From a virus, in IMG/VR virus record IMGVR_UViG_3300029849_000019, positions 1-33,303 of that record: a stretch of 33,303 nt of DNA. The stretch is one strand, 5' to 3'. This document shows, piece after piece, positions 3,780 through 33,303 of the stretch. Positions within the stretch are counted from its first letter, which is position 1. Every line of letters begins with the position of its first letter. The translations under genes were made by a program, and so were the position numbers. The notes beneath the pieces were generated by a model, which saw only the letters and a list, made by a program, of their open reading frames with translations, made no database searches and was not told the origin of the DNA.

Positions 3780-4057
3780 TTACGCTTCCTTGATTTGTTT
3801 GGCTTCTAGAATGGCTTGTGCGACCTTGGCTACTGTCTCGTTATAGAACTCGTCCCACTCGTCACAGTTGATATACATATCTTCAACATCTACGGGGAAT
3901 TGGGCGCCGTCCAGCCTTTGAGAATAGTAAGAGAATATAAACCCCTCGAACGTTGGCATTTCCTGCACTGCGTCAATAACTTGGTATTTGTTCTTTCTCG
4001 CGCTTGCCTGCAAATGTTTTTTTTTACTTCCTCGATAATAAACTTTTGCTCTTTCAT
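3780..4057 (-). CDS. Hypothetical acidic protein whose frame is interrupted at an A9 tract. The ATG at 4057 is out of frame with ORF 3780..4013.
   Basis: The P3 promoter, conserved leader and ATG at 4057 open a frame that stops after ~49 codons. A -1 shift on GTA AAA AAA AAC (T-run at 4017-4025 on plus) joins it to the 77-codon ORF, which otherwise has only a TTG start. Confidence 0.45.
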
Positions 4058-4082
4058 AACTTTATTTTTTAAATTGTTGGTG

Positions 4083-4124
4083 CAAATATAACGCTTTTGC
4101 TAATACGTTGGTTCATCCATTAAC
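4083..4124 (-). promoter_or_regulatory. Early promoter family copy P3
   Basis: Minus strand reads GTTAATGGATGAACCAAC-N16-TATATTTG, followed by CAATTTAAAAAATAAAGTTATG. Confidence 0.65.
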
Positions 4125-4338
4125 GTTTTTTATTATATATTGCTTCCAGCATGGGTTGCATGAAGTTGTATGATACCCCCTCGAACTGGTAGCTGTCAAA
4201 ATGCCCGTCGAAACGTACCTCTGTGAAAGGCGCGCTTTGCTCCGTGCCGTTATCATCTAAGAATATAAGGATGTGGCTTTTCATCTCGAAACCACCCTCT
4301 TTAATCGTCTCTCTGAAAATACAGTCAATCGCTTTCAT
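4120..4338 (-). CDS. Hypothetical protein (72 aa)
   Basis: ORF with ATG preceded by the A-rich leader CGATTAAAAAGTAGAACTATG. Confidence 0.55.
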   Translation of the reverse strand: MKAIDCIFRETIKEGGFEMKSHILIFLDDNGTEQSAPFTEVRFDGHFDSYQFEGVSYNFMQPMLEAIYNKKR

Positions 4339-4687: not shown

Positions 4688-4774
4688 AACTTTATCTTTT
4701 TAATCGTTTATTTCCAATTTGATGTCCTGGTGACCTCCTGCCATCCGGGAAACCCTTGTTTCCTTTTGACATTG

Positions 4775-4806
4775 CAAATATACGGCAAATAGCGATAGGT
4801 TGTATC
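4775..4806 (-). promoter_or_regulatory. Early promoter family copy P5 (leading promoter of the early block)
   Basis: Minus strand reads GATACAAC-N16-TATATTTGCAATGTCAAAAGGAAA, near-identical to P6. It is followed by a ~80-nt leader containing the hairpin GGAAAC-CCTT-GTTTCC (4748-4763). Confidence 0.6.
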
Positions 4807-4896: not shown

Positions 4897-5116
4897 CTGC
4901 ACTGCACAGAAACACACCTAAATTCCTAAACTTTAATATAGGATATGGTGGTTTATACAGCTCGTTCTATAGTGGTAAATGGTATTTTCTCCAGGATAAT
5001 GTTTTACCCCCTTTTTACTGTGCATACTGTGCATTTACATATAATATATTATAATATAGAGAGTTAGAGTGCACAGAGACCTGCACAGACCCACTTTTCT
5101 ACTGTGCAGGCTGTGG
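4897..5116. repeat. Twin intergenic element, copy A: TGCACAG/CTGTGCA heptamer array around an AT-rich palindrome
   Basis: It aligns with 21618-21826 in the same orientation, with a core of ~135 bp that is highly similar. Heptamers start at 4903, 5018, 5027, 5070, 5082 and 5102. The palindrome ATAATATATTAT is at 5041-5052. Confidence 0.85.
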
Positions 5117-5129
5117 TTAAGGGATGTTA

Positions 5130-5163
5130 ACGAAAAATGGAGAACTGTTAACAGCCCTCCATT
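5130..5163 (-). terminator. Candidate terminator ending the late block
   Basis: Stem AATGGAG/CTCCATT encloses the palindrome CTGTTAACAG. It lies 7 nt after the stop at 5170 and is followed on the minus strand by TTTTCG. Confidence 0.5.
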
Positions 5164-5169
5164 CCCTAA

Positions 5170-5763
5170 TTATTTTAGCCTTACCGCTATGTCTATATCT
5201 ATCTTTGATTTGGGGTTTTTGTTTGATATGTCGTGCTCTATAGCCTTGACCCCCCATCTGAAAAACAAGAATCTTTTCTTCCGGACTGTGATAACACCCG
5301 TTATCGTGTCCCTACCTTGGTAGCTTAATTCCGTGCTATCCCGTTTAACCCTCGCTTGTATCGTGTTCCATGCGTCCCGGTATTCGGCTATCAACTCGCC
5401 GGCTATCAACTCGCCGGCTACCGTATCGGTACGCACAACTTCCTTTATTACTGTCTTGGTAACGGTACGGGTTGCAGAAAGCGCATCTTTTACCCGGACA
5501 TTAAGCGCGTCCACCTCTTTATATAGGTCTGCGTTCGTCTTCTTTAGCTCCTTGTGCGACATCTCTAAAGCTTTACGCTTCACCGCCGCATCCCCGAGCT
5601 TGGTTTTGTACCCTATCTGAGCATCGTTCATCGCCTCAACGTTACGTTCTAAACGTCCTATTTCGGCTCTTTGCTTCCTTATGGTGTCTACCATCTTGGT
5701 TATTGCACCAAATAGCACCATAAGGACTGCAAAGCCTATAATTATCTTTTGTAGTTTATTCAT
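5170..5763 (-). CDS. Membrane-anchored coiled-coil protein, candidate lysis accessory (i-spanin-like)
   Basis: N-terminal TM segment IIIGFAVLMVLFGAI, then a long coiled coil. It is the last gene after holin and endolysin. Start chosen at ATGAATAA, which overlaps the endolysin stop. It contains an internal 15-bp tandem duplication (AGELIAGELIA). Confidence 0.5.
   Translation of the reverse strand: MNKLQKIIIGFAVLMVLFGAITKMVDTIRKQRAEIGRLERNVEAMNDAQIGYKTKLGDAAVKRKALEMSHKELKKTNADLYKEVDALNVRVKDALSATRTVTKTVIKEVVRTDTVAGELIAGELIAEYRDAWNTIQARVKRDSTELSYQGRDTITGVITVRKKRFLFFRWGVKAIEHDISNKNPKSKIDIDIAVRLK
5386..5420. repeat. 15-bp tandem duplication (GGCTATCAACTCGCC x2.3) inside the CDS
   Basis: Read directly; it encodes the repeated GELIA. 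Confidence 0.8.
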
Positions 5764-6271
5764 AGCGTATCGCATTAATACGGTTCATCCACCCCTTGCG
5801 GTATTTCTCGTTTTTGGGTCTCGCCTTGCATATCTCATCTATGAACTTTGCTCTATCGTCTTTAATCATTTTAAAGAGCGTAGCCGCGTCCATAGCATTA
5901 ACGGCTGCAATTGTCTGTTTGCCTACGATACCGTCCGCCTTGACGCCTAAAAGACGTTGTGGGCGCTTTATACCGTGCGAACCAGAAGCCCACACCCAGT
6001 CTACTACGATATTGGCTACCGCCTGGCTGATGATGTCATCAGCTTTCCACCTATCCCAATACAACGACTTGAATACGTCGTGCCATTCGGCATCGGATAT
6101 GTTTTTCAAGTCCTCGACGGTTGGGGCTTTTTGCCCCTTCCGCTTCTTGTATTCGGTGAATGCGCCTATAGTGATACCTTTGTTCGTTGCACCCCCCAGG
6201 TCGTCCGGGTCGTTAACGAAACCGCCTTCCCACTGTAGGATGAACGGTACTAATTTACTGCTGTTCGCCAT
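5756..6271 (-). CDS. Endolysin, GH108 lysozyme-like N-terminal domain with a C-terminal peptidoglycan-binding-like domain
   Basis: FILQWEGGFVNDPDDLGGATNKGIT matches the GH108 signature EGGyxxDPxDxGGxTxxGI. Confidence 0.85.
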   Translation of the reverse strand: MANSSKLVPFILQWEGGFVNDPDDLGGATNKGITIGAFTEYKKRKGQKAPTVEDLKNISDAEWHDVFKSLYWDRWKADDIISQAVANIVVDWVWASGSHGIKRPQRLLGVKADGIVGKQTIAAVNAMDAATLFKMIKDDRAKFIDEICKARPKNEKYRKGWMNRINAIRYE

Positions 6272-14968: not shown

Positions 14969-16573
14969 TTAATTATTAACTGCGATTAACGTAACGTTCG
15001 CATTTCCTGTTGATGGGTCCCAATTGCTTATCGTTCGGAGGTAAAACCAGTAGTTAAGCTCACCTACGAAGTAAAGCGCGTCGGACTTCATTTTCTGTAT
15101 ATCAAAATACGATAGGTTCATTTTTGCCGTCACCTGCCACCCGGGGGAGAAACGGTAGTAGTGCCCTGCTATCGTTGCACGGTAACCGCTCGCACGGTTG
15201 AAATAGTTATCGGGTACGTACGAGCCTGCCAACCTAATCATAGAGGCATATGGTCTAGGTGCACCGGGGTCTACCGGGAACGCGCTCTCGCCTACTGTCT
15301 CCTGCACAGATATGGCACCGCCGTAACCGCCTACCGTCTGTTTGATTGAGCCTACCTGCACCGCGTATGTCCTTGCCGCGCCGGGGGTTTCCGATACTTC
15401 AATGCTTGATTTGTCAATTTTCCCCGTCCAGTCGACCCGGTACGTAGAACTCGAAGACGGGTTGATAAATGGCTTGAGCTTCAGCGCAAACGGTTTGGAC
15501 TTGAATTCATACGTCCAGCAAAACGCTTTGCAGAACGCCTGCACAATCCCGAAAGGTGTATCTATGCCCATTGTCTCTACTAAATCCCAAGCATACTTCG
15601 GGGCTGTAGCCGAATTAATCTTGAACGAGATGTAATACGCTTCTGCATTCGGCACGGTGGAAATTGGCGTTATCGAATATACCGTAGACGAAGCGGAGGT
15701 AGTGAAGCCGAAGTTCAAATCGCGTGTCGGTCTTGGCGTAACCAAACAAGACGTAGAACCCGGGCTTACCGGGCTGTACTTGTAGTTGCCATCGGGTCTT
15801 ACCGCGCCGCGCTGAAACGGCAAAGTGAATGTACCGCCGTTGCTTCTAAGATAAACCGTAGCAGGAGCAGAAGGTGGGAGAACTATAAACGAATCGTCGG
15901 TAAACCTTAAATCGAATTTCGAACCAGTCATGTAGGTAAAACACGTGGCTACCTCGTTGTTCTCCGCTATCATGTAGTTGGCTGCATATACGGAGCCGTC
16001 CAGTCCGTCGTGCGCGCCTTTAAAAACTAATTGGCTCTCCGCGTCCTTGTAGTCCCCCGCCGTTTTAGTTACCCGGTCTGCGATGTATGACATAAGCAAG
16101 GGCGTTGACCCGTTCGCCGCGTATATCGTAGGTATAGTAACGCCGTTCGGGTACGCGTAATTAAGGCTATCTATATACGTTGAAAACTGATATGCTGGTG
16201 TTTCCAATTTAGGTAGGGCAACCACCGGGGCGCGCAATGTCGAAAGCTTCGATATGTTTTCTATCAGTTCGAGGCTATACCCGTCCTCATCTGCCGTTAC
16301 CCGTACACGGAACAAACCGCTACCGAACGGAATATTGAAGCCCCCGAAATGCAACTCTGCACGGTACGGGGATGTCCTTATGAACTTCCCCGGGAAACGC
16401 TCGGAACGGAATACCCGGTCATTAACTTCTGAACGCGGTATGTTGATTGCCCCGGAGTAACTGACCGTTTGCTCCGTGAACTTCAAAGGGTCCGGGTTGT
16501 TGATAGTCAGCTTCACCGAGTTAGCGGTTACACCGTCTATCACTTCGCCATTAATTCGTATTGTTAAATCCAT
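14969..16573 (-). CDS. Tail / baseplate-like structural protein (534 aa)
   Basis: Large beta-rich ORF adjacent to the tape-measure-like gene. The N-terminus LTIRINGEVIDG is reminiscent of distal tail proteins. Confidence 0.4.
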   Translation of the reverse strand: MDLTIRINGEVIDGVTANSVKLTINNPDPLKFTEQTVSYSGAINIPRSEVNDRVFRSERFPGKFIRTSPYRAELHFGGFNIPFGSGLFRVRVTADEDGYSLELIENISKLSTLRAPVVALPKLETPAYQFSTYIDSLNYAYPNGVTIPTIYAANGSTPLLMSYIADRVTKTAGDYKDAESQLVFKGAHDGLDGSVYAANYMIAENNEVATCFTYMTGSKFDLRFTDDSFIVLPPSAPATVYLRSNGGTFTLPFQRGAVRPDGNYKYSPVSPGSTSCLVTPRPTRDLNFGFTTSASSTVYSITPISTVPNAEAYYISFKINSATAPKYAWDLVETMGIDTPFGIVQAFCKAFCWTYEFKSKPFALKLKPFINPSSSSTYRVDWTGKIDKSSIEVSETPGAARTYAVQVGSIKQTVGGYGGAISVQETVGESAFPVDPGAPRPYASMIRLAGSYVPDNYFNRASGYRATIAGHYYRFSPGWQVTAKMNLSYFDIQKMKSDALYFVGELNYWFYLRTISNWDPSTGNANVTLIAVNN

Positions 16574-21314: not shown

Positions 21315-21324
21315 TAGTATTCGG

Positions 21325-21429
21325 ACTATCCCAGTATTGGGACGGCTCGGACTTCACGGACTATCCCAGTATTGGGACGGCTCGGACTTCACGGACTATC
21401 CCAGTATTGGGACGGCTCGGACTTCACGG
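21325..21429. repeat. Three perfect tandem 35-bp iterons (ACTATCCCAGTATTGGGACGGCTCGGACTTCACGG)
   Basis: Copies at 21325, 21360 and 21395 are identical base for base, with partial degenerate copies at both ends. Each contains the TCCCA-GTAT-TGGGA mini-palindrome. Confidence 0.95.
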
Positions 21430-21456
21430 ACGATACCTCGCAGTTCGTATCAACTG

Positions 21457-21617: not shown

Positions 21618-21826
21618 AGCACCTGCACAGACACACACTTTTTTTTCTAAACTTATATTTAGAGAATAGTATATTTTGTATCCTCCAAAATACACTTTTC
21701 TCAAAAATAATGTTTTACCCTCTTTTTACTGTGCATCTGTGTATTTACATATAATATATTATAATATAAGGAGTTAGACTGCACAGTAACCTGCACAGTA
21801 GTGATTTTTTACTGTGCAGCTGTGCA
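21618..21826. repeat. Twin intergenic element, copy B
   Basis: Aligns with 4897-5116. Heptamers start at 21624, 21729, 21737 (degenerate), 21780, 21792, 21812 and 21820. The palindrome ATAATATATTAT is at 21751-21762. Confidence 0.85.
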
Positions 21827-21859: not shown

Positions 21860-21909
21860 TGAATATAAACAAAAGCCCAAATCTGACATTTTGTAATCAG
21901 ATTTGGGCT
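21860..21909 (-). terminator. Rho-independent terminator ending the early block
   Basis: 13-bp stem AGCCCAAATCTGA/TCAGATTTGGGCT with a 10-nt loop, followed on the minus strand by TTTTGTTTATATT. Confidence 0.75.
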
Positions 21910-23246: not shown

Positions 23247-23529
23247 CTAATCTATTAAATTGTCGGTATATACGTAATAATACTTTTCACAATTTTTAAA
23301 TACCACGTCGAAAGGCATCAGTTCTGACGCTGGCCAGCCATCGGTTTGCGATGCATCTACTATCAGCAAGGGTTCGTCAGCCAGGTCATTGTGGCTATAG
23401 CCTACTACCTCCAATTGCTCACCTTCATAGTTAGCAAATCGCCCTATGTACTTTTCCAACGGGTGGACTTCTCTCTCTCTGATTAAACTGCGAGTACATC
23501 TCACTAACTGCACTTAAATACTTTTCCAT
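23247..23529 (-). CDS. Hypothetical protein whose canonical ATG (23529) is out of frame with the long ORF (23247..23513, GTG start). An (AG)5 tract lies between them.
   Basis: The P7 promoter, leader and ATG give a 32-codon frame. The long ORF is in the +1 frame. The CAGAGAGAGAGAA tract (23470-23480 on plus) could bridge the two by a 2-nt slip. Confidence 0.45.
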
Positions 23530-23555
23530 AATCTTCTGTTTTTAAATCGTTGATA

Positions 23556-23597
23556 CAAATATAACGCTTTTCCCATTATGTTGGTTCTTTCGTTAAC
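23556..23597 (-). promoter_or_regulatory. Early promoter family copy P7
   Basis: Minus strand reads GTTAACGAAAGAACCAAC-N16-TATATTTG, followed by CGATTTAAAAACAGAAGATTATG. Confidence 0.65.
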
Positions 23598-23659
23598 ACT
23601 ATTTAAGTATTAAACTATCTTTCAGCGATAGCCCGTACTCTAATTGCTGTAGCTTGAAA

Positions 23660-25561: not shown

Positions 25562-25950
25562 TTAAAATTGTCCTTTATAAATAAATAATTTCTCGGTAGT
25601 TTTTCTTTTATCGGAGCTCATGTTATTTTGTAATGGCTTCTCCCAAATTTTTACAAAGTCTTCCGGAGCTTGGTATTCGGAGATGTAGACCTTGCCCGGA
25701 AGCAGCTCTTAACGTCGTTGTACAGTTCGGGGTCTATTTGCTCGGGGTATTTCTTCCCGGACGCTAAGCCCTCAAACATAGCTATCAGATACTCGTTGCT
25801 ATCGTTTGCTATCCTGTTTCCTAATACTTGGGCGGTCACGTTACACCCACCGCAAAATGGTTCTACAAAATATTGCCCTTCTTTTCTGTCTGCCAAAATT
25901 ATAGGCAAAATTTCTTTTGCTATTCTTGTCTTGCTCCCTAAATAAATCAT
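25562..25950 (-). pseudogene. Decayed Dam-like (D12 class) N6-adenine DNA methyltransferase: the N-terminal ~80 aa and C-terminal ~50 aa sit in different frames and the catalytic middle is missing
   Basis: The N-terminus IYLGSKTRIAKEILPII...YFVEPFCGGCNV is the AdoMet motif I. After YNDVK the frame runs into junk and stops. The +1 frame reads ELLPGKVYISEYQAPEDFVKIWEKP...EKLFIYK, a typical Dam C-terminus. No DPPY motif appears in any frame. Confidence 0.6.
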
Positions 25951-25977
25951 ACTTAATTATGTTTTTTTAATTTGATA

Positions 25978-26316
25978 TTACAAAGATAACCCTCTTCCCG
26001 GTACGTTGTTTATTTCCTTAACATTGTTTAAGAAGAAACTTATTGCGGCGTCCCTGCTTTCCAAATCGTCGATGACAAATACTTTGAAGCCCAAAGCCTC
26101 TAACTTGCTATGTATTAGTAATTGTATCTTGGTTGGTTTCTTACCCGTGGTCTTTATCTCGGCAAAGCCTACATACCCACCCTGGCAAAGTATCATTCTA
26201 TCTGGCAAGCCTTTTATAAAGGTGGATAATAGTTTTATTACCCACACTTTTTTTGTTCGGTTAAGCTTCTCGGAGAATGTACGCTCTAAATATTTTTCAC
26301 TTATTATATCCTCCAT
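25978..26316 (-). CDS. VRR-NUC domain nuclease
   Basis: GLPDRMIL...GFAEIKTTGKKPTKIQ matches the PD...ExK...Q core of VRR-NUC. Its neighbourhood with SNF2 is the usual one. Confidence 0.75.
   Translation of the reverse strand: MEDIISEKYLERTFSEKLNRTKKVWVIKLLSTFIKGLPDRMILCQGGYVGFAEIKTTGKKPTKIQLLIHSKLEALGFKVFVIDDLESRDAAISFFLNNVKEINNVPGRGLSL
25981..26012 (-). promoter_or_regulatory. Promoter upstream of the methyltransferase remnant
   Basis: Minus strand reads GGGTTATCTTTGTAAT (TAnnTTTG), 30 nt upstream of ATG 25950. Confidence 0.45.
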
Positions 26317-26482: not shown

Positions 26483-27225
26483 AATGTGAATTGAATTGCT
26501 TTGTTTTCTAACTTAACATTGCTTAAGAACTCGGGGTACGTCCCATCCGCACGCTTTGCCGACATGTTACGATAGGAAAACTTGTTCCCTTCCATACCGA
26601 AGTAACGGAGCAACCTACCCGCAAACGTTATTATATAATCGTGCTTCTCGTAGTTCTTGCCTTCGTACCCTATCTTTAGCGAGCTTCTGTGATTGTCTGA
26701 AGATATACCACCCCCTAGCCTTATCACATTGGGCGGTAGGTGCATTTCGTGTACGCGGCCCCAAAGCTTTTGCCCCAAAAGGCCTGCATACAAGTGGTTT
26801 CCATATGCGTCTACACCCAAATACATATAGGGTACGCTACCAACCATAAACACCGAGTAACCGACATACTTACCGTTCCACTTCCTGCCCTCTGTATAGA
26901 ACATTGGTGGCTTCATTGTCTCGTCCATGCAAAATACCGTCGTATCGTCGCTTTCCTCGTCCTCTACGGGCTTTTCTGCCTCGGCTGGTGCAGCTACCTT
27001 GGTTTCCTTAGAAAGCTCCGCAATGCGATATTTGCATATGTGGATAATCTTTTCGTAGTCAAGCGTCCGCGCCTCTTCTTCTTTGGTGCGGAGAACACGT
27101 TTCACTATATCGGCGTCCCAGGGGTTAAGGTTATATTCTTTCCAAATATCCCATGGTTGTATGGCGTGCTTTGCATAATCAGACTTTCCCACATTGTAAC
27201 TCTGTACGTTTTCATTTGCTGACAT
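26479..27225 (-). CDS. Two-domain hypothetical protein with a DUF3310-like N-terminal domain
   Basis: DYAKHAIQPWDIWKEYNLNPWDADIVKRVLRTK resembles the DUF3310 core (..KYl.R..K). An acidic linker and an unknown 150-aa C-domain follow. Confidence 0.5.
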   Translation of the reverse strand: MSANENVQSYNVGKSDYAKHAIQPWDIWKEYNLNPWDADIVKRVLRTKEEEARTLDYEKIIHICKYRIAELSKETKVAAPAEAEKPVEDEESDDTTVFCMDETMKPPMFYTEGRKWNGKYVGYSVFMVGSVPYMYLGVDAYGNHLYAGLLGQKLWGRVHEMHLPPNVIRLGGGISSDNHRSSLKIGYEGKNYEKHDYIITFAGRLLRYFGMEGNKFSYRNMSAKRADGTYPEFLSNVKLENKAIQFTL

Positions 27226-28258: not shown

Positions 28259-28300
28259 AATCTTTTGTTTTTAAATTGTTATTATTTCCTTTTGACATTA

Positions 28301-28342
28301 CAAATATACGGCAAATACTGATAGGTTGTATATTTCATTAAC
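28301..28342 (-). promoter_or_regulatory. Early promoter family copy P6
   Basis: Minus strand reads GTTAATGAAATATACAAC-N16-TATATTTGTAATGTCAAAAGGAAA, near-identical to P5. Confidence 0.65.
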
Positions 28343-28422
28343 ACCATTTAAGAAATAAATCTCATTTAGTTATTCTGTTAACAGTTAGTTAACATTTGGG
28401 GGCCTTTACACCCCCTCTGTTA

Positions 28423-30861
28423 TCACTCGTTAACAATACGTTCATATCCTCGTACGCGTCCGAGGCCCATAACGGTTTTACCGTTCGCCGCTCGCTGCCA
28501 CCCTTGTACTTTAGACATGATAGCGGCTATCTCTCTGCTCTCTTTAGCGGTTACGCGCCCTACTTCCATCTCGAACACGTCCGTGGCTATTTGCATAACC
28601 GAAACGAAGTCCATTTTTTCCAGTGTAAAATCTTCCGGGTCTATCTTCGACGCGTCGTACTCCCTAAAGTACATGCGCCTTTCATTCACATACATACGTC
28701 TCCAATCTGCCGGCACAAGCATATTCAAATACGCTTCTACTGATGCCGTACGGGGGTCTGCCTCGAAATGCTCTTCTCGTCCTTTCTCGGCGATTTCCTC
28801 GGCTTCACGGGATAACAAAGTACTCACTTTTCGGAAATACATTTGTACGGCTTCCGCCCATAACTGGTCTACGTAATCGTCGAAGTCCTTCTCAAAGATA
28901 AGATGCGTATTGGCGTTCGCCTTAACCTTCACGGGCAAAAAGCGTCTGCCGCCCGTATCGTCCTTTAGAAATTCGTCCCGGTTAGTCGTACCTATAAAGA
29001 TACATTGCCTGGGGAAGTTCTTAGTAACACGCCCGTATGCTGGTCTAAAGCTGTCCTCGGTTTTAGAAATGAAGTTTTTCACGCCCTCAACCTCTGAACG
29101 TCTCATTGCTGACAACTCGGCTACCTCCAATATCCAATTACCTTGCAATTGTTCAAACGCGCTTTTCCCGTCCATACTCGAAAGACTATCCGAAAACCAA
29201 TGTTTGCCAAGCATCCGAATAAATGTGCTCTTTCCCGCGCCCTGCTCGGACTGTAACACTAACATACTGTCGAACTTGCAGCCCTTTTGAAAGATACGCT
29301 TAACCGCTCCTACCATCATAATTCGGAATGCCTCGCGGGTGTATACGTTATCTTCGGCACCCATGATGTGTATTAAGGTCTTATCTACACGTTCGATACC
29401 GTCCCATTTAAGTTTAGTTAAATACTCCTGCACTGGGTGGAAAGAATTCATTTCTGCGGACAAGGCTATAGCATCGTCAATCTTCGCACTGTTGGATATG
29501 CCGTAAACGTCCTCGATGTGCTTACGTACGCCCGAATAATCTACGTCCTGAAAGTCCAAAGAACTATCCTTTGCGCGCCAAAGAGGTACACGGGTAACAA
29601 CCCGGCGTTCTTTAAATAGGTCTCGCGCGATAAGCCCCTTTAGGTTCGGGTCGTACTTCATTATCAACCCTAAATTCTTTGCAGATGGGAGGTAAGCGCC
29701 GCGCTTATCGGTTTCCAACTTCGCCATTGCGTCCTCATACGTTGTTGCTACATCGCTGTCTGTTGCCTCCTCTACTTCTATAACGTCGTCGAAATCGTCC
29801 ATGATTTCACCAGCCTTAACCGCAAGCATCCGGGCACGCGCCGCAGCTACCTTTGCATCCTTGTTTACAAGTTCGTTCATGGCTTCGGTCGAGTTCTTCC
29901 TATCGGTGCCCTTATCCAGCTTACCGAACTTGTGTACACGTACAAGGTCGTAGGCGTTGAACACGTGGTTGCCTTGTATCGGGTCATTGTTATGGAACGA
30001 GTAGGCGAACATATCATTAAAGGTAAGCATACCGCCCGATGTGGAACCGCCCGTGTAAGTCCATCGGTCCTCCTGGTCGGTCGGTTCGTACACGTCCGAT
30101 AGGTATTCCGAGATAGCCTCGCTAATCGTGTAGGCCCTGCAAAAGTCGCCTACATTACCCTCTTTTAGTGTGGGGTCTTGTTGTTCTTTAGCAAGCGTCC
30201 GGGCTTCGCCCTTCTCGTCCTTGTGGTATGCCCATTCGGTTGTATCACTCCAATCGTCGTACATGCCCAGATACTTTTGCACATCCAAAGGGCTTTCGTT
30301 AAACGCCGAGTAATCTATAAACTCGTAGTCCACATCCCGGGAAACAGAGGGAAAAAACATGCAGCGCTCGGGTTGAAAGGTGGTGCGGTCGTACAAGTCT
30401 ATTCCTGTTAATTCTGCAACCTTTCGGGCGATGGCTTCGTATTGTTCCCCGTCCACTGGTTCGGACAACGGAATGATAACACGGTAGCGAAATGTATTTG
30501 CCTTCGGGTTATGCTTGTGCGTCCCATGAATGATACACGCGCAATTGATAACCGAGTAGAACGCTTCCGGGAAGTTCTTTTCTCCGTAGTCAATATCAAG
30601 CGCCAAAATAGAGCGCTCACCGACATTGTTTTTGTTTCTACGGCTACCGAACAACTCGCCGCCCATGAAGGCGCCTACGTCTTTAATATTACCCTGCTCG
30701 GCTTTGCTCGCGCTTATAAACTCCCGGTACGTCTCATCCGTAACGGTTGCCTTTGTCAACTTCTCGGTTAACTCGTCCCATGAGTAGGAGCGGTTTTTCC
30801 ATGAAGTAGACTTTGCGCTGCTCGCTGTAGCAATTTTAAAAACCATTTTTCTCAATTCCAT
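28423..30861 (-). CDS. DNA primase-helicase: VirE_N/BT4734-like prim-pol domain plus a VirE/D5-type P-loop NTPase
   Basis: ILALDIDYG, HGTHKH and RYRVIIPL in the N-domain, and Walker A SEQGAGKSTF in the C-terminal half. Length is 812 aa. Confidence 0.85.
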   Translation of the reverse strand: MELRKMVFKIATASSAKSTSWKNRSYSWDELTEKLTKATVTDETYREFISASKAEQGNIKDVGAFMGGELFGSRRNKNNVGERSILALDIDYGEKNFPEAFYSVINCACIIHGTHKHNPKANTFRYRVIIPLSEPVDGEQYEAIARKVAELTGIDLYDRTTFQPERCMFFPSVSRDVDYEFIDYSAFNESPLDVQKYLGMYDDWSDTTEWAYHKDEKGEARTLAKEQQDPTLKEGNVGDFCRAYTISEAISEYLSDVYEPTDQEDRWTYTGGSTSGGMLTFNDMFAYSFHNNDPIQGNHVFNAYDLVRVHKFGKLDKGTDRKNSTEAMNELVNKDAKVAAARARMLAVKAGEIMDDFDDVIEVEEATDSDVATTYEDAMAKLETDKRGAYLPSAKNLGLIMKYDPNLKGLIARDLFKERRVVTRVPLWRAKDSSLDFQDVDYSGVRKHIEDVYGISNSAKIDDAIALSAEMNSFHPVQEYLTKLKWDGIERVDKTLIHIMGAEDNVYTREAFRIMMVGAVKRIFQKGCKFDSMLVLQSEQGAGKSTFIRMLGKHWFSDSLSSMDGKSAFEQLQGNWILEVAELSAMRRSEVEGVKNFISKTEDSFRPAYGRVTKNFPRQCIFIGTTNRDEFLKDDTGGRRFLPVKVKANANTHLIFEKDFDDYVDQLWAEAVQMYFRKVSTLLSREAEEIAEKGREEHFEADPRTASVEAYLNMLVPADWRRMYVNERRMYFREYDASKIDPEDFTLEKMDFVSVMQIATDVFEMEVGRVTAKESREIAAIMSKVQGWQRAANGKTVMGLGRVRGYERIVNE

Positions 30862-32999: not shown

Positions 33000-33303
33000 T
33001 TAATCGGCAAAAATAGGTGAGTAGAAAATAAAACCTCGCTTCTCGTTAAGAATGACGTATGTTTGCTGTGGTTCCTCGTATGCCAACCCGTGACCCATTG
33101 CGAACGCGTCGAAACCTTTTAGAGAACCGTTAACACAAACCTCTTTAGTATATACCATTTGGTGATAATGTCCCAAAAAGGCTTTATCAATTTGTATTGT
33201 TTGGTTCATTTTGGCGTACCATCTCATCATAGACGGGTAAATACCTCCGATGCCGCCAGCCGTGCGGAATTGATGCCCGTGCGCAAATAGCACTTTCTTT
33301 CCG
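33000..33303 (-). CDS. Calcineurin-like metallophosphoesterase, 3' part (33205-33303 duplicates 1-99)
   Basis: Same frame as 1..896 through the overlap. It contains the HGH motif. The M shown at 33293 in the track is an internal GTG. Confidence 0.75.
   Translation of the reverse strand, partial: GKKVLFAHGHQFRTAGGIGGIYPSMMRWYAKMNQTIQIDKAFLGHYHQMVYTKEVCVNGSLKGFDAFAMGHGLAYEEPQQTYVILNEKRGFIFYSPIFAD

Follow-up and report, generated by a model that had tools for sequence, protein, structure and literature searches.

The alpha protein of the satellite phage P4 combines primase, helicase and a C-terminal sequence-specific DNA-binding domain in one polypeptide, and it binds the iteron TGTTCACC at two separate loci, ori and crr, which differ in structure, lie ~4.5 kb apart and are both required. 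SV40 large T antigen and papillomavirus E1 are SF3 helicases with an origin-binding domain of their own, and they assemble as two hexamers. The Reps of SaPIs (Staphylococcus aureus pathogenicity islands) are self-loading helicases that double as the initiator, and a winged-helix domain within their C-terminal domain recognises short iterons (PMC9371898). SaPI origins contain 6-12 short iterons and a central AT-rich region, with at least 2 iterons per side running in opposite directions; in the SaPI Rep structures only single-stranded DNA is resolved, and the contact between the winged helix and double-stranded DNA was not visualised (PMC9371898). SPP1, a Bacillus siphophage of the pac type, has two origins, oriL and oriR, which consist of repeats and an AT-rich unwinding element, lie ~13 kb apart and share one initiator, gp38 (PMC6316719). 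One of the two is situated in the late region between transcription signals, and it has been proposed that forks stall at initiator bound to the second origin, which would trigger concatemer synthesis (PMC6316719).

The DNA considered here (the window, that is, the whole stretch of 33,303 nucleotides in IMG/VR record IMGVR_UViG_3300029849_000019) is a phage genome, circular and 33,204 bp long. Bases 1-99 recur identically at 33205-33303, and this 99-nt end repeat is the assembly overlap of a circular or circularly permuted genome. The genome is ~80% identical to lytic Bacteroides uniformis siphophages, including EMB1/EMB2, BU1-1 to BU3-1, BU730P1 and C2_18_80S2P. Every one of its long ORFs is on the minus strand, and because all genes share that strand, the element described below is best read on it (the coding strand), while the GC skew of the whole genome, which is monotonic and carries no origin signal, is uninformative. 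A tRNA/tmRNA scan of the window found nothing. The features that place the element in the genome are as follows.

4897-5116, minus strand: twin element copy A (candidate origin A), from the sequence and its presence at this position in all covered relatives
21620-21826, minus strand: twin element copy B (candidate origin B), from the sequence and its alignment to copy A
21874-21909, minus strand: terminator-like hairpin with a T-run, closing the early block just upstream of copy B, from a terminator scan
5133-5165, minus strand: hairpin AATGGAG(14 nt)CTCCATT with TTTT behind it, downstream of the last late gene, found by eye

The two copies align over ~215 nt and have the same orientation relative to transcription. 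Copy A lies after the lysis genes, behind the endolysin gene and a DUF6549 gene, and precedes the first early-type promoter module. Copy B comes after the early block, whose final gene and terminator-like hairpin precede it, and has a 3 x 35-nt tandem repeat and the gene for the small terminase on its other side. The twins thus stand at both junctions of the early (replication) block with the late (structural, lysis) block, 16.7 kb apart on a 33.2-kb circle, a spacing of about half a genome. The terminator scan confirmed only the hairpin at 21874-21909; the one at 5133-5165 was not called, its loop being above the limit of the tool.

Other repeats are found in the same genome. Repeated modules of ~50-90 nt (1543-1615, 1901-1992, 4050-4141, 4756-4805, 23523-23614, 25948-26039, 26501-26529 and 28268-28359) lie directly upstream of small early genes and carry on the coding strand a Bacteroidetes-type -7 motif (e.g. 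TATATTTG) and boxes with TTAAC; they are confined to the early half, with none in the late block, and from their sequence they look like an early promoter set with a shared upstream element. The tandem repeat between copy B and the small terminase gene is a perfect 3 x 35-nt array (CGGACTATCCCAGTATTGGGACGGCTCGGACTTCA, 21322-21437), which could be a pac or TerS-binding site or a late promoter region. Between the element core and terS, relatives have 343 to 635 nt, a spread that suggests a variable number of 35-nt repeats. Three tandem 15-nt units (CAACTCGCCGGCTAT-like, 5377-5430) lie inside the 201-aa DUF6549 gene (5170-5775, minus strand), where they encode a short in-frame peptide repeat.

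The word TGCACAG, together with its complement CTGTGCA, matches the window 13 times, against 2.53 +/- 1.67 matches expected from 100 dinucleotide shuffles, whose maximum was 7 matches, so that 0/100 shuffles reached the observed number. The enrichment claimed by the first-pass annotation thus stands up to a genome-wide count, although the chance expectation, which it had put at ~4, is ~2.5 by shuffling. Twelve of the 13 heptamers are inside the twin elements, six in 4903-5108 and six in 21624-21826; the single one outside starts at 15303. In copy A, the heptamers lie exactly where they had been placed (TGCACAG on the plus strand at 4903, 5070 and 5082; the complement at 5018, 5027 and 5102), whereas the seven claimed for the second copy are six exact words and a degenerate seventh (CTGTGTA, 21737). 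The 12-bp palindrome reported in copy A (ATAATATATTAT, 5041-5052) is present and extends to 14 nt (TATAATATATTATA, 5040-5053), but the pure A/T block around it, said to be 30 bp long, measures 20 nt. The 9-bp inverted pair CCTGCACAG (5080-5088) and CTGTGCAGG (5102-5110), with 13 bp between its arms, is also as described, including the spacer of copy B, which is 13 nt long as in copy A and different in sequence.

On the coding strand, the element runs from s0 and s1 (both forward) through a 13-nt spacer to s2 (reverse), 4-5 nt, s3 (reverse) and 11 nt to the AT core, after which come s4 (forward), 2 nt, s5 (forward), an invariant block (AAAAAGGGGGTAAAACATTAT), ~100 nt and s6 (reverse). The sites flanking the core therefore oppose each other, with s2 and s3 in reverse on one side and s4 and s5 forward on the other, and this is the case in both copies and in all relatives. 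Of the outer sites, s0 and s1 are forward on one side, in copy A with their coding-strand direction towards the core, and s6 is reversed ~105 bp away on the other side. About 120 bp of each element are not iterons, namely the invariant block and the stretch up to s6. The parts of the two copies are listed below.

5102-5116, no strand assigned: copy A s1 (CTGTGCAG on the plus strand, 5102-5109) and a degenerate s0 (5111-5116)
5089-5101, no strand assigned: copy A spacer between s1 and s2, 13 bp, from the comparison of copies
5069-5088, no strand assigned: copy A s2 (5081-5088) and s3 (5070-5076), in the same orientation on one side of the core
5039-5058, no strand assigned: copy A AT core, 20 nt of pure A/T holding the 14-nt palindrome at 5040-5053
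5018-5033, no strand assigned: copy A s4 (5027-5033) and s5 (5018-5024), in the opposite orientation to s2/s3
4996-5017, minus strand: copy A invariant non-iteron block, TAAAAAGGGGGTAAAACATTAT on the coding strand, from the comparison of copies
4897-4910, no strand assigned: copy A distal s6 (4902-4909) and a partial repeat (4897-4901)
21812-21826, no strand assigned: copy B s1 (21812-21819) and s0 (21820-21826)
21779-21798, no strand assigned: copy B s2 (21791-21798) and s3 (21780-21786)
21749-21769, no strand assigned: copy B AT core, 21 nt of pure A/T
21729-21743, no strand assigned: copy B s5 (21729-21735) and a degenerate s4 (CTGTGTA, 21737-21743)
21623-21630, no strand assigned: copy B distal s6

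The AT core of copy A is a candidate DNA-unwinding element. The core is nearly invariant among the 24 copies compared, and the two longest pure A/T runs of the genome are the two AT cores, that of copy B being the longest and that of copy A the second. Across copies, the spacer between s1 and s2 keeps its length (13-14 bp) and is free in sequence. The block adjoining s5 (4996-5017, and 21707-21728 in copy B) is almost invariant over ~90 copies, and distant relatives with wholly different iterons partly keep it (ACAGTAAAAGGGGGTA); it might serve for priming, for the binding of a host factor or as a signal in transcription.

The element is found at two places in each of 13 GenBank relatives, whose records carry no annotation on the matching regions. 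Our comparison set consisted of 11 GenBank relatives in full and of IMG/VR loci for which TerS, the SNF2 helicase and the DUF2800 exonuclease served as anchors. In every covered genome (12 isolates and dozens of IMG/VR contigs), a single copy stands behind the lysis genes and a single copy in front of terS. Copies were assigned to A or B by genomic context; sorting them by sequence failed, as some copies in the A position are B-like. There is hardly any variation in the scaffold, which comprises the AT core and the invariant block. The word differs by lineage, with TGCACAG in 44 genomes, TTACACAG in 7, TGACACAG in 2, TGACCAG in 4 and a few genomes mixed, and within a genome all sites of both copies switch together. 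TGACCAG-type genomes have GCCCAG at s0, s2 and s6. Distant relatives, in which TerS identity is 60-78%, share the design in twin elements or in elements near terS, with TGGCACAG or GGAACAC as the word. Words are mixed in some elements (021824, 031785, 024297 and copy B of BU1-1/BU3-1), so the code is not strictly one word per protein. The alignment of relatives, which had been suggested earlier as a check, thus reveals half-site words that change together between lineages on a kept scaffold, as expected of recognition sites co-evolving with the protein that binds them. The earlier reading had been either a replication origin or a multi-operator regulatory region, and it is the origin that these comparative data favour.

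Individual relatives offer further observations. In IMG/VR contig 3300045988_024297, copy A is a hybrid with TGCACAG at s1/s2 and the TTACACAG type at s4/s6, copy B is of the TTACACAG type, and the helicase wing, KRSADAKS, is that of the TTACACAG type; judged by its sequence, the contig looks like a recombinant caught between two specificities. The spacers of copies A and B are identical within the genome in BU1-1, BU3-1, BU2-1 and BU183P1, which suggests exchange between the two copies. The BU2-2 record (PQ571282.1) begins and ends inside copy A (1-190 and 34336-34537), with ~140 nt present at both ends. We considered from this that copy A might be the genome end, and rejected the idea because the ~140-nt terminal overlap indicates an assembly junction and EMB2 is reported to be circularly permuted. 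Apparently, the BU2-2 assembly was broken at the repeated element, and the deposited 'complete genome' is terminally redundant as a result.

If the words are recognition sites, a phage protein might be expected to vary with them. ORFs were called in all typed genomes and clustered, and each variable column was scored for association with word type, controlled by permuting the labels. Among the 5,853 variable columns of 41 families, the ten with the strongest association belong without exception to the 812-aa primase-helicase, with the reservation that the permutation control ignores phylogeny and that independent switches of word and wing are modest in number, roughly 8-10 classes. These columns (478, 549, 721, 724, 756, 767, 789, 793, 794 and 796) are centred on residues 789-796.

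28423-30861, minus strand: 812-aa primase-helicase, the proposed initiator, from domain matches and co-variation
28474-28497, minus strand: codons for residues 789-796 (QRAANGKT), the modelled tip of the wing hairpin, from co-variation and the model

In contrast, no word-diagnostic residues were seen in TerS, in the 131-aa protein beside copy B or in the 201-aa protein beside copy A, and neither these three nor any other family had type-diagnostic alleles or allelic replacements. Two candidate binders had been named at the outset, the primase-helicase and the 131-aa protein; residues of the former track the word switch, and the latter shows no association. Mean protein identity within types versus between types was too blunt a measure to discriminate.

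The motif at 789-796 maps almost one-to-one onto word type, and we propose these residues as the specificity determinant for the iteron word. The pairs of wing and word are the following.

Wing QRAANGKT (NG at 793-794): pure TGCACAG
Wing with K/R789, D/E793 and A794: TTACACAG (7/7)
Wing with G793 and R794: TGACCAG family (4/4)
Wing with N793 and A794: GACACAG (3/3)
Wing with G793 and Q794: TGCACAG plus ACTCAG variants (BU1-1, BU3-1)

The combination of K/R789 and D/E793 occurs in three divergent lineages of the C-terminal domain, all of them with TTACACAG. Further wing-word pairs come from independent lineages, and the tracking extends to at least 8 classes. In a blind check on contig 030341, which was outside the typing set, the wing KRSADAKS was accompanied by the words CTGTGTA(A), as predicted. 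The association is not a matter of clonal ancestry, given that over residues 1-470 the nearest neighbour of a non-TGCACAG genome was of the same type in only 3/12 cases. The C-terminal domains of the TGACCAG type are 99% identical to one another and at most 88% to the rest, and yet they sit on backgrounds 98% like those of TGCACAG genomes. Such type-specific domains on mixed backgrounds indicate that the C-terminal domain and the iterons travel together while the remainder is shuffled, even though the primase-helicase gene is 6.6 kb from the nearest element. As a separate observation, the C-terminal domain (690-812; window 28426-28794) is by far the most variable part of a protein that is elsewhere 96-99% conserved. 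Its identity between specificity classes is 87-92%, and the variation is concentrated at the wing tip and not in the usual position of a recognition helix.

The domain composition of the protein fits an initiator of known kind. Residues 7-438 match PHROG primase families (phrog_9765, E = 1e-96), so that the N-terminal region is putatively primase-like; residues 481-698 form a VapE-like SF3 helicase domain (Pfam PF05272, E = 4.2e-80), and residues 699-812 make up the C-terminal domain. The only solved sequence relative found by phmmer was the SaPI1 Rep-DNA complex, PDB 7PDS (E = 5.4e-80, residues 393-731). Homologues for the analysis were taken full-length; the C-terminal 182 aa alone gave only 6 matches. 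An AlphaFold2 model of residues 690-812, built on a 53-sequence alignment (pLDDT 89.7), has a helix at 772-784 followed by a beta-hairpin with strands at 788-790 and 795-797 and a turn at 791-794, which makes the co-varying motif the predicted tip of the wing, since residues 789-796 form the modelled hairpin after the long helix. Compared with the PDB by Foldseek, the model significantly matched chains A-F of 7PDS only (E = 4e-5 to 7e-4, TMq 0.69-0.73); weaker matches were to the winged-helix domains of Fur, FoxO and IRF. The model thus predicts that the C-terminal domain contains a winged-helix-like DNA-binding module.

From this computational evidence, namely the anatomy, the conservation at two positions, the concerted switching, the tracking of the word by the wing and a predicted fold like that of SaPI Rep, each twin is probably an iteron-type origin, with the 7-8-bp words serving as binding sites for the winged-helix-like C-terminal domain of the primase-helicase. 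We infer that the protein binds at these sites, that the core melts and that replication starts at the elements. By analogy with SaPI Rep and other SF3-type initiator-helicases, the primase-helicase would need no separate loader: once bound to the iterons, it would assemble to either side of the AT core and melt it, and its own primase domain would then prime synthesis. The genome would have two such origins, about half the circle apart and at the boundaries of the early and late blocks; one copy could instead serve as an auxiliary site, as crr does in P4, or as a barrier to forks in the manner of SPP1 oriR.

The position of the elements would also suit a multi-operator or promoter module heading each temporal block, to which a phage regulator would bind and so set the timing of early and late expression. 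Each copy closely follows a terminator-like hairpin and comes before the gene that opens a block, in the same orientation to transcription; the late block is without Bacteroidetes-type promoter modules, so a late promoter must lie somewhere near copy B; and one invariant block of the element is not an iteron. We nevertheless consider such a module unlikely, as no small protein or regulator co-varies with the words and the primase-helicase alone does. In addition, no TAnnTTTG-type Bacteroidetes promoter is visible by eye in the conserved part, sigma-70-type matches are at chance level (under a sigma-70 model that is ill-suited to Bacteroidetes), and copy A would send a 'late' element into early genes that have promoters of their own. 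A transcriptional role could, on the other hand, be a second function on top of origin activity. Less likely again, to the point of being very improbable, is a structured RNA or single-stranded DNA element in which the inverted words are conserved for pairing, either in the stems of a transcribed regulatory RNA, attenuator or terminator or as a cruciform, an option akin to the selection on a stem that the first-pass annotation had allowed for. Copies A and B do fold better than shuffled controls (z = -2.9 and -6.8, respectively), s1:s2 is the best-kept pairing, fully pairable in 47/63 informative copies, and the spacer varies in sequence with its length kept. However, the best folds of A and B pair different sites, and no particular pairing scheme is specifically preserved among the copies: s1:s2 is mismatched in TGACCAG-type and mixed TTACACAG-type copies, and in copy B of BU1-1 and BU3-1 the changes are at s2 and s4, for which no helix nested with s3:s5 is possible. 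The direct repeats s4 and s5 switch word too, yet cannot pair with each other, and pairing would explain neither the shared type of copies 16.7 kb apart nor the co-variation with the wing. The window also has no Rfam 15 match at E <= 1 anywhere.

The proximity of copy B to the small terminase gene (~375 bp upstream of it), together with the assignment of EMB2 to headful (pac) packaging by PhageTerm (PMC9584325), might point to recognition sites of the pac type for the small terminase. This we regard as highly improbable, because no TerS residue tracks word type, a complete second copy lies half a genome away beside the lysis genes, and the separate 3 x 35-nt repeat (21322-21437) is nearer to terS and at least an equal pac candidate. 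We give even less credence to the twins being a mobile or recombination element, as a MITE-like repeat with terminal inverted words or as a pair of sites for a site-specific recombinase. Although the element begins with CTGCACAG and ends with CTGTGCAG on the coding strand, occurs as two direct copies and has 5' halves that appear homogenised between A and B within genomes, all relatives, the distant ones too, have exactly two copies in fixed positions, with no extras elsewhere, and no transposase or recombinase is found among the scanned ORFs or in the annotations of relatives.

Returning to the iteron origins, a more specific version of this reading is tentative, and we rate it as possible but doubtful: the antipodal elements may be a coupled pair rather than redundant origins, and wing-tip residues 789, 793, 794 and 796 may act as a portable word code. 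Both elements would then be loaded by the same self-loading primase-helicase, and the second element would either fire as well or act as a programmed fork barrier, producing the switch from theta replication to concatemers for headful packaging, while two to four wing-tip residues would set which 7-8-bp word the initiator reads. Concatemers are called for because EMB2 is reported to package by the headful (pac) mechanism, as determined by PhageTerm, and to be circularly permuted (PMC9584325). The phage has genes for recombination and restart, namely those for a DUF2800 nuclease, a DUF2815 SSB, an Mre11-like nuclease, VRR-NUC and an SNF2 helicase. If the coupled pair and the code were true, origin specificity, and hence the replication incompatibility of co-infecting gut phages, would be predictable and re-engineerable.

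The published genome papers on these phages make no mention of an origin or of these repeats. For this group of lytic Bacteroides gut phages, which is widespread, the elements provide a first origin location that can be tested. The word-wing pairs, at least 8 in number, are natural co-variation data on how a winged helix of SF3-type self-loading initiator-helicases reads double-stranded iterons. A known origin with its specificity determinant would aid the design of shuttle and replicon tools for Bacteroides phages, and would help to predict which related phages can use each other's replication machinery.

The kind of system is already known from SaPI Rep/ori, P4 ori/crr and SPP1 oriL/oriR; what appears notable here, from comparison of the sequences, is the full duplication at the boundaries of gene blocks and a clear natural code between wing and iteron. 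The origins of SV40 and the papillomaviruses resemble the twins in having inverted short words beside AT-rich or easily melted DNA, but the origin-binding domains of T antigen and E1 have an unrelated fold and are N-terminal to the helicase, there is no primase fusion, and each genome has one origin. SPP1 is similar in its two similarly organised elements of repeats and AT-rich DNA, which is an analogy, the initiator types being unrelated: gp38 is not itself a helicase and depends on a loader, gp39, and on gp40, a helicase of the DnaB type, the SPP1 repeats are direct, and oriL is inside gene 38. Like P4 alpha, the present protein has a primase-like region, a helicase and a C-terminal domain in one polypeptide (here from sequence and model), although a Foldseek search with the C-terminal-domain model gave no significant match to the DNA-binding domain of P4 alpha. 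As in P4, two separate loci carry the same word type in every genome, whereas here, unlike in P4, they are near-identical complete units.

A close parallel is with the SaPIs, from which the present system differs in several respects. It belongs to a lytic Bacteroides siphophage and not to a Gram-positive satellite, its words are 7-8 bp instead of 5-6 bp, and it has two full copies 16.7 kb apart where a SaPI has one. The SaPI origin is immediately downstream of rep, whereas here the elements are 6.6 kb downstream and, around the circle, ~7.5 kb upstream; extra outer sites and the invariant non-iteron block are also particular to the phage elements, and the identity of the C-terminal domain to that of SaPI Rep1 is only ~15%. 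Nevertheless, the initiator is in both cases a VapE-like SF3 helicase, in the SaPI5 version also fused to a primase (PMC9371898), with what is predicted here to be the same C-terminal fold. In both, iterons surround an AT-rich core with at least two opposed iterons per side, and specificity differs between related elements. In both, too, the iteron word is matched to its cognate C-terminal domain, a correspondence that is here an association seen in natural co-variation.
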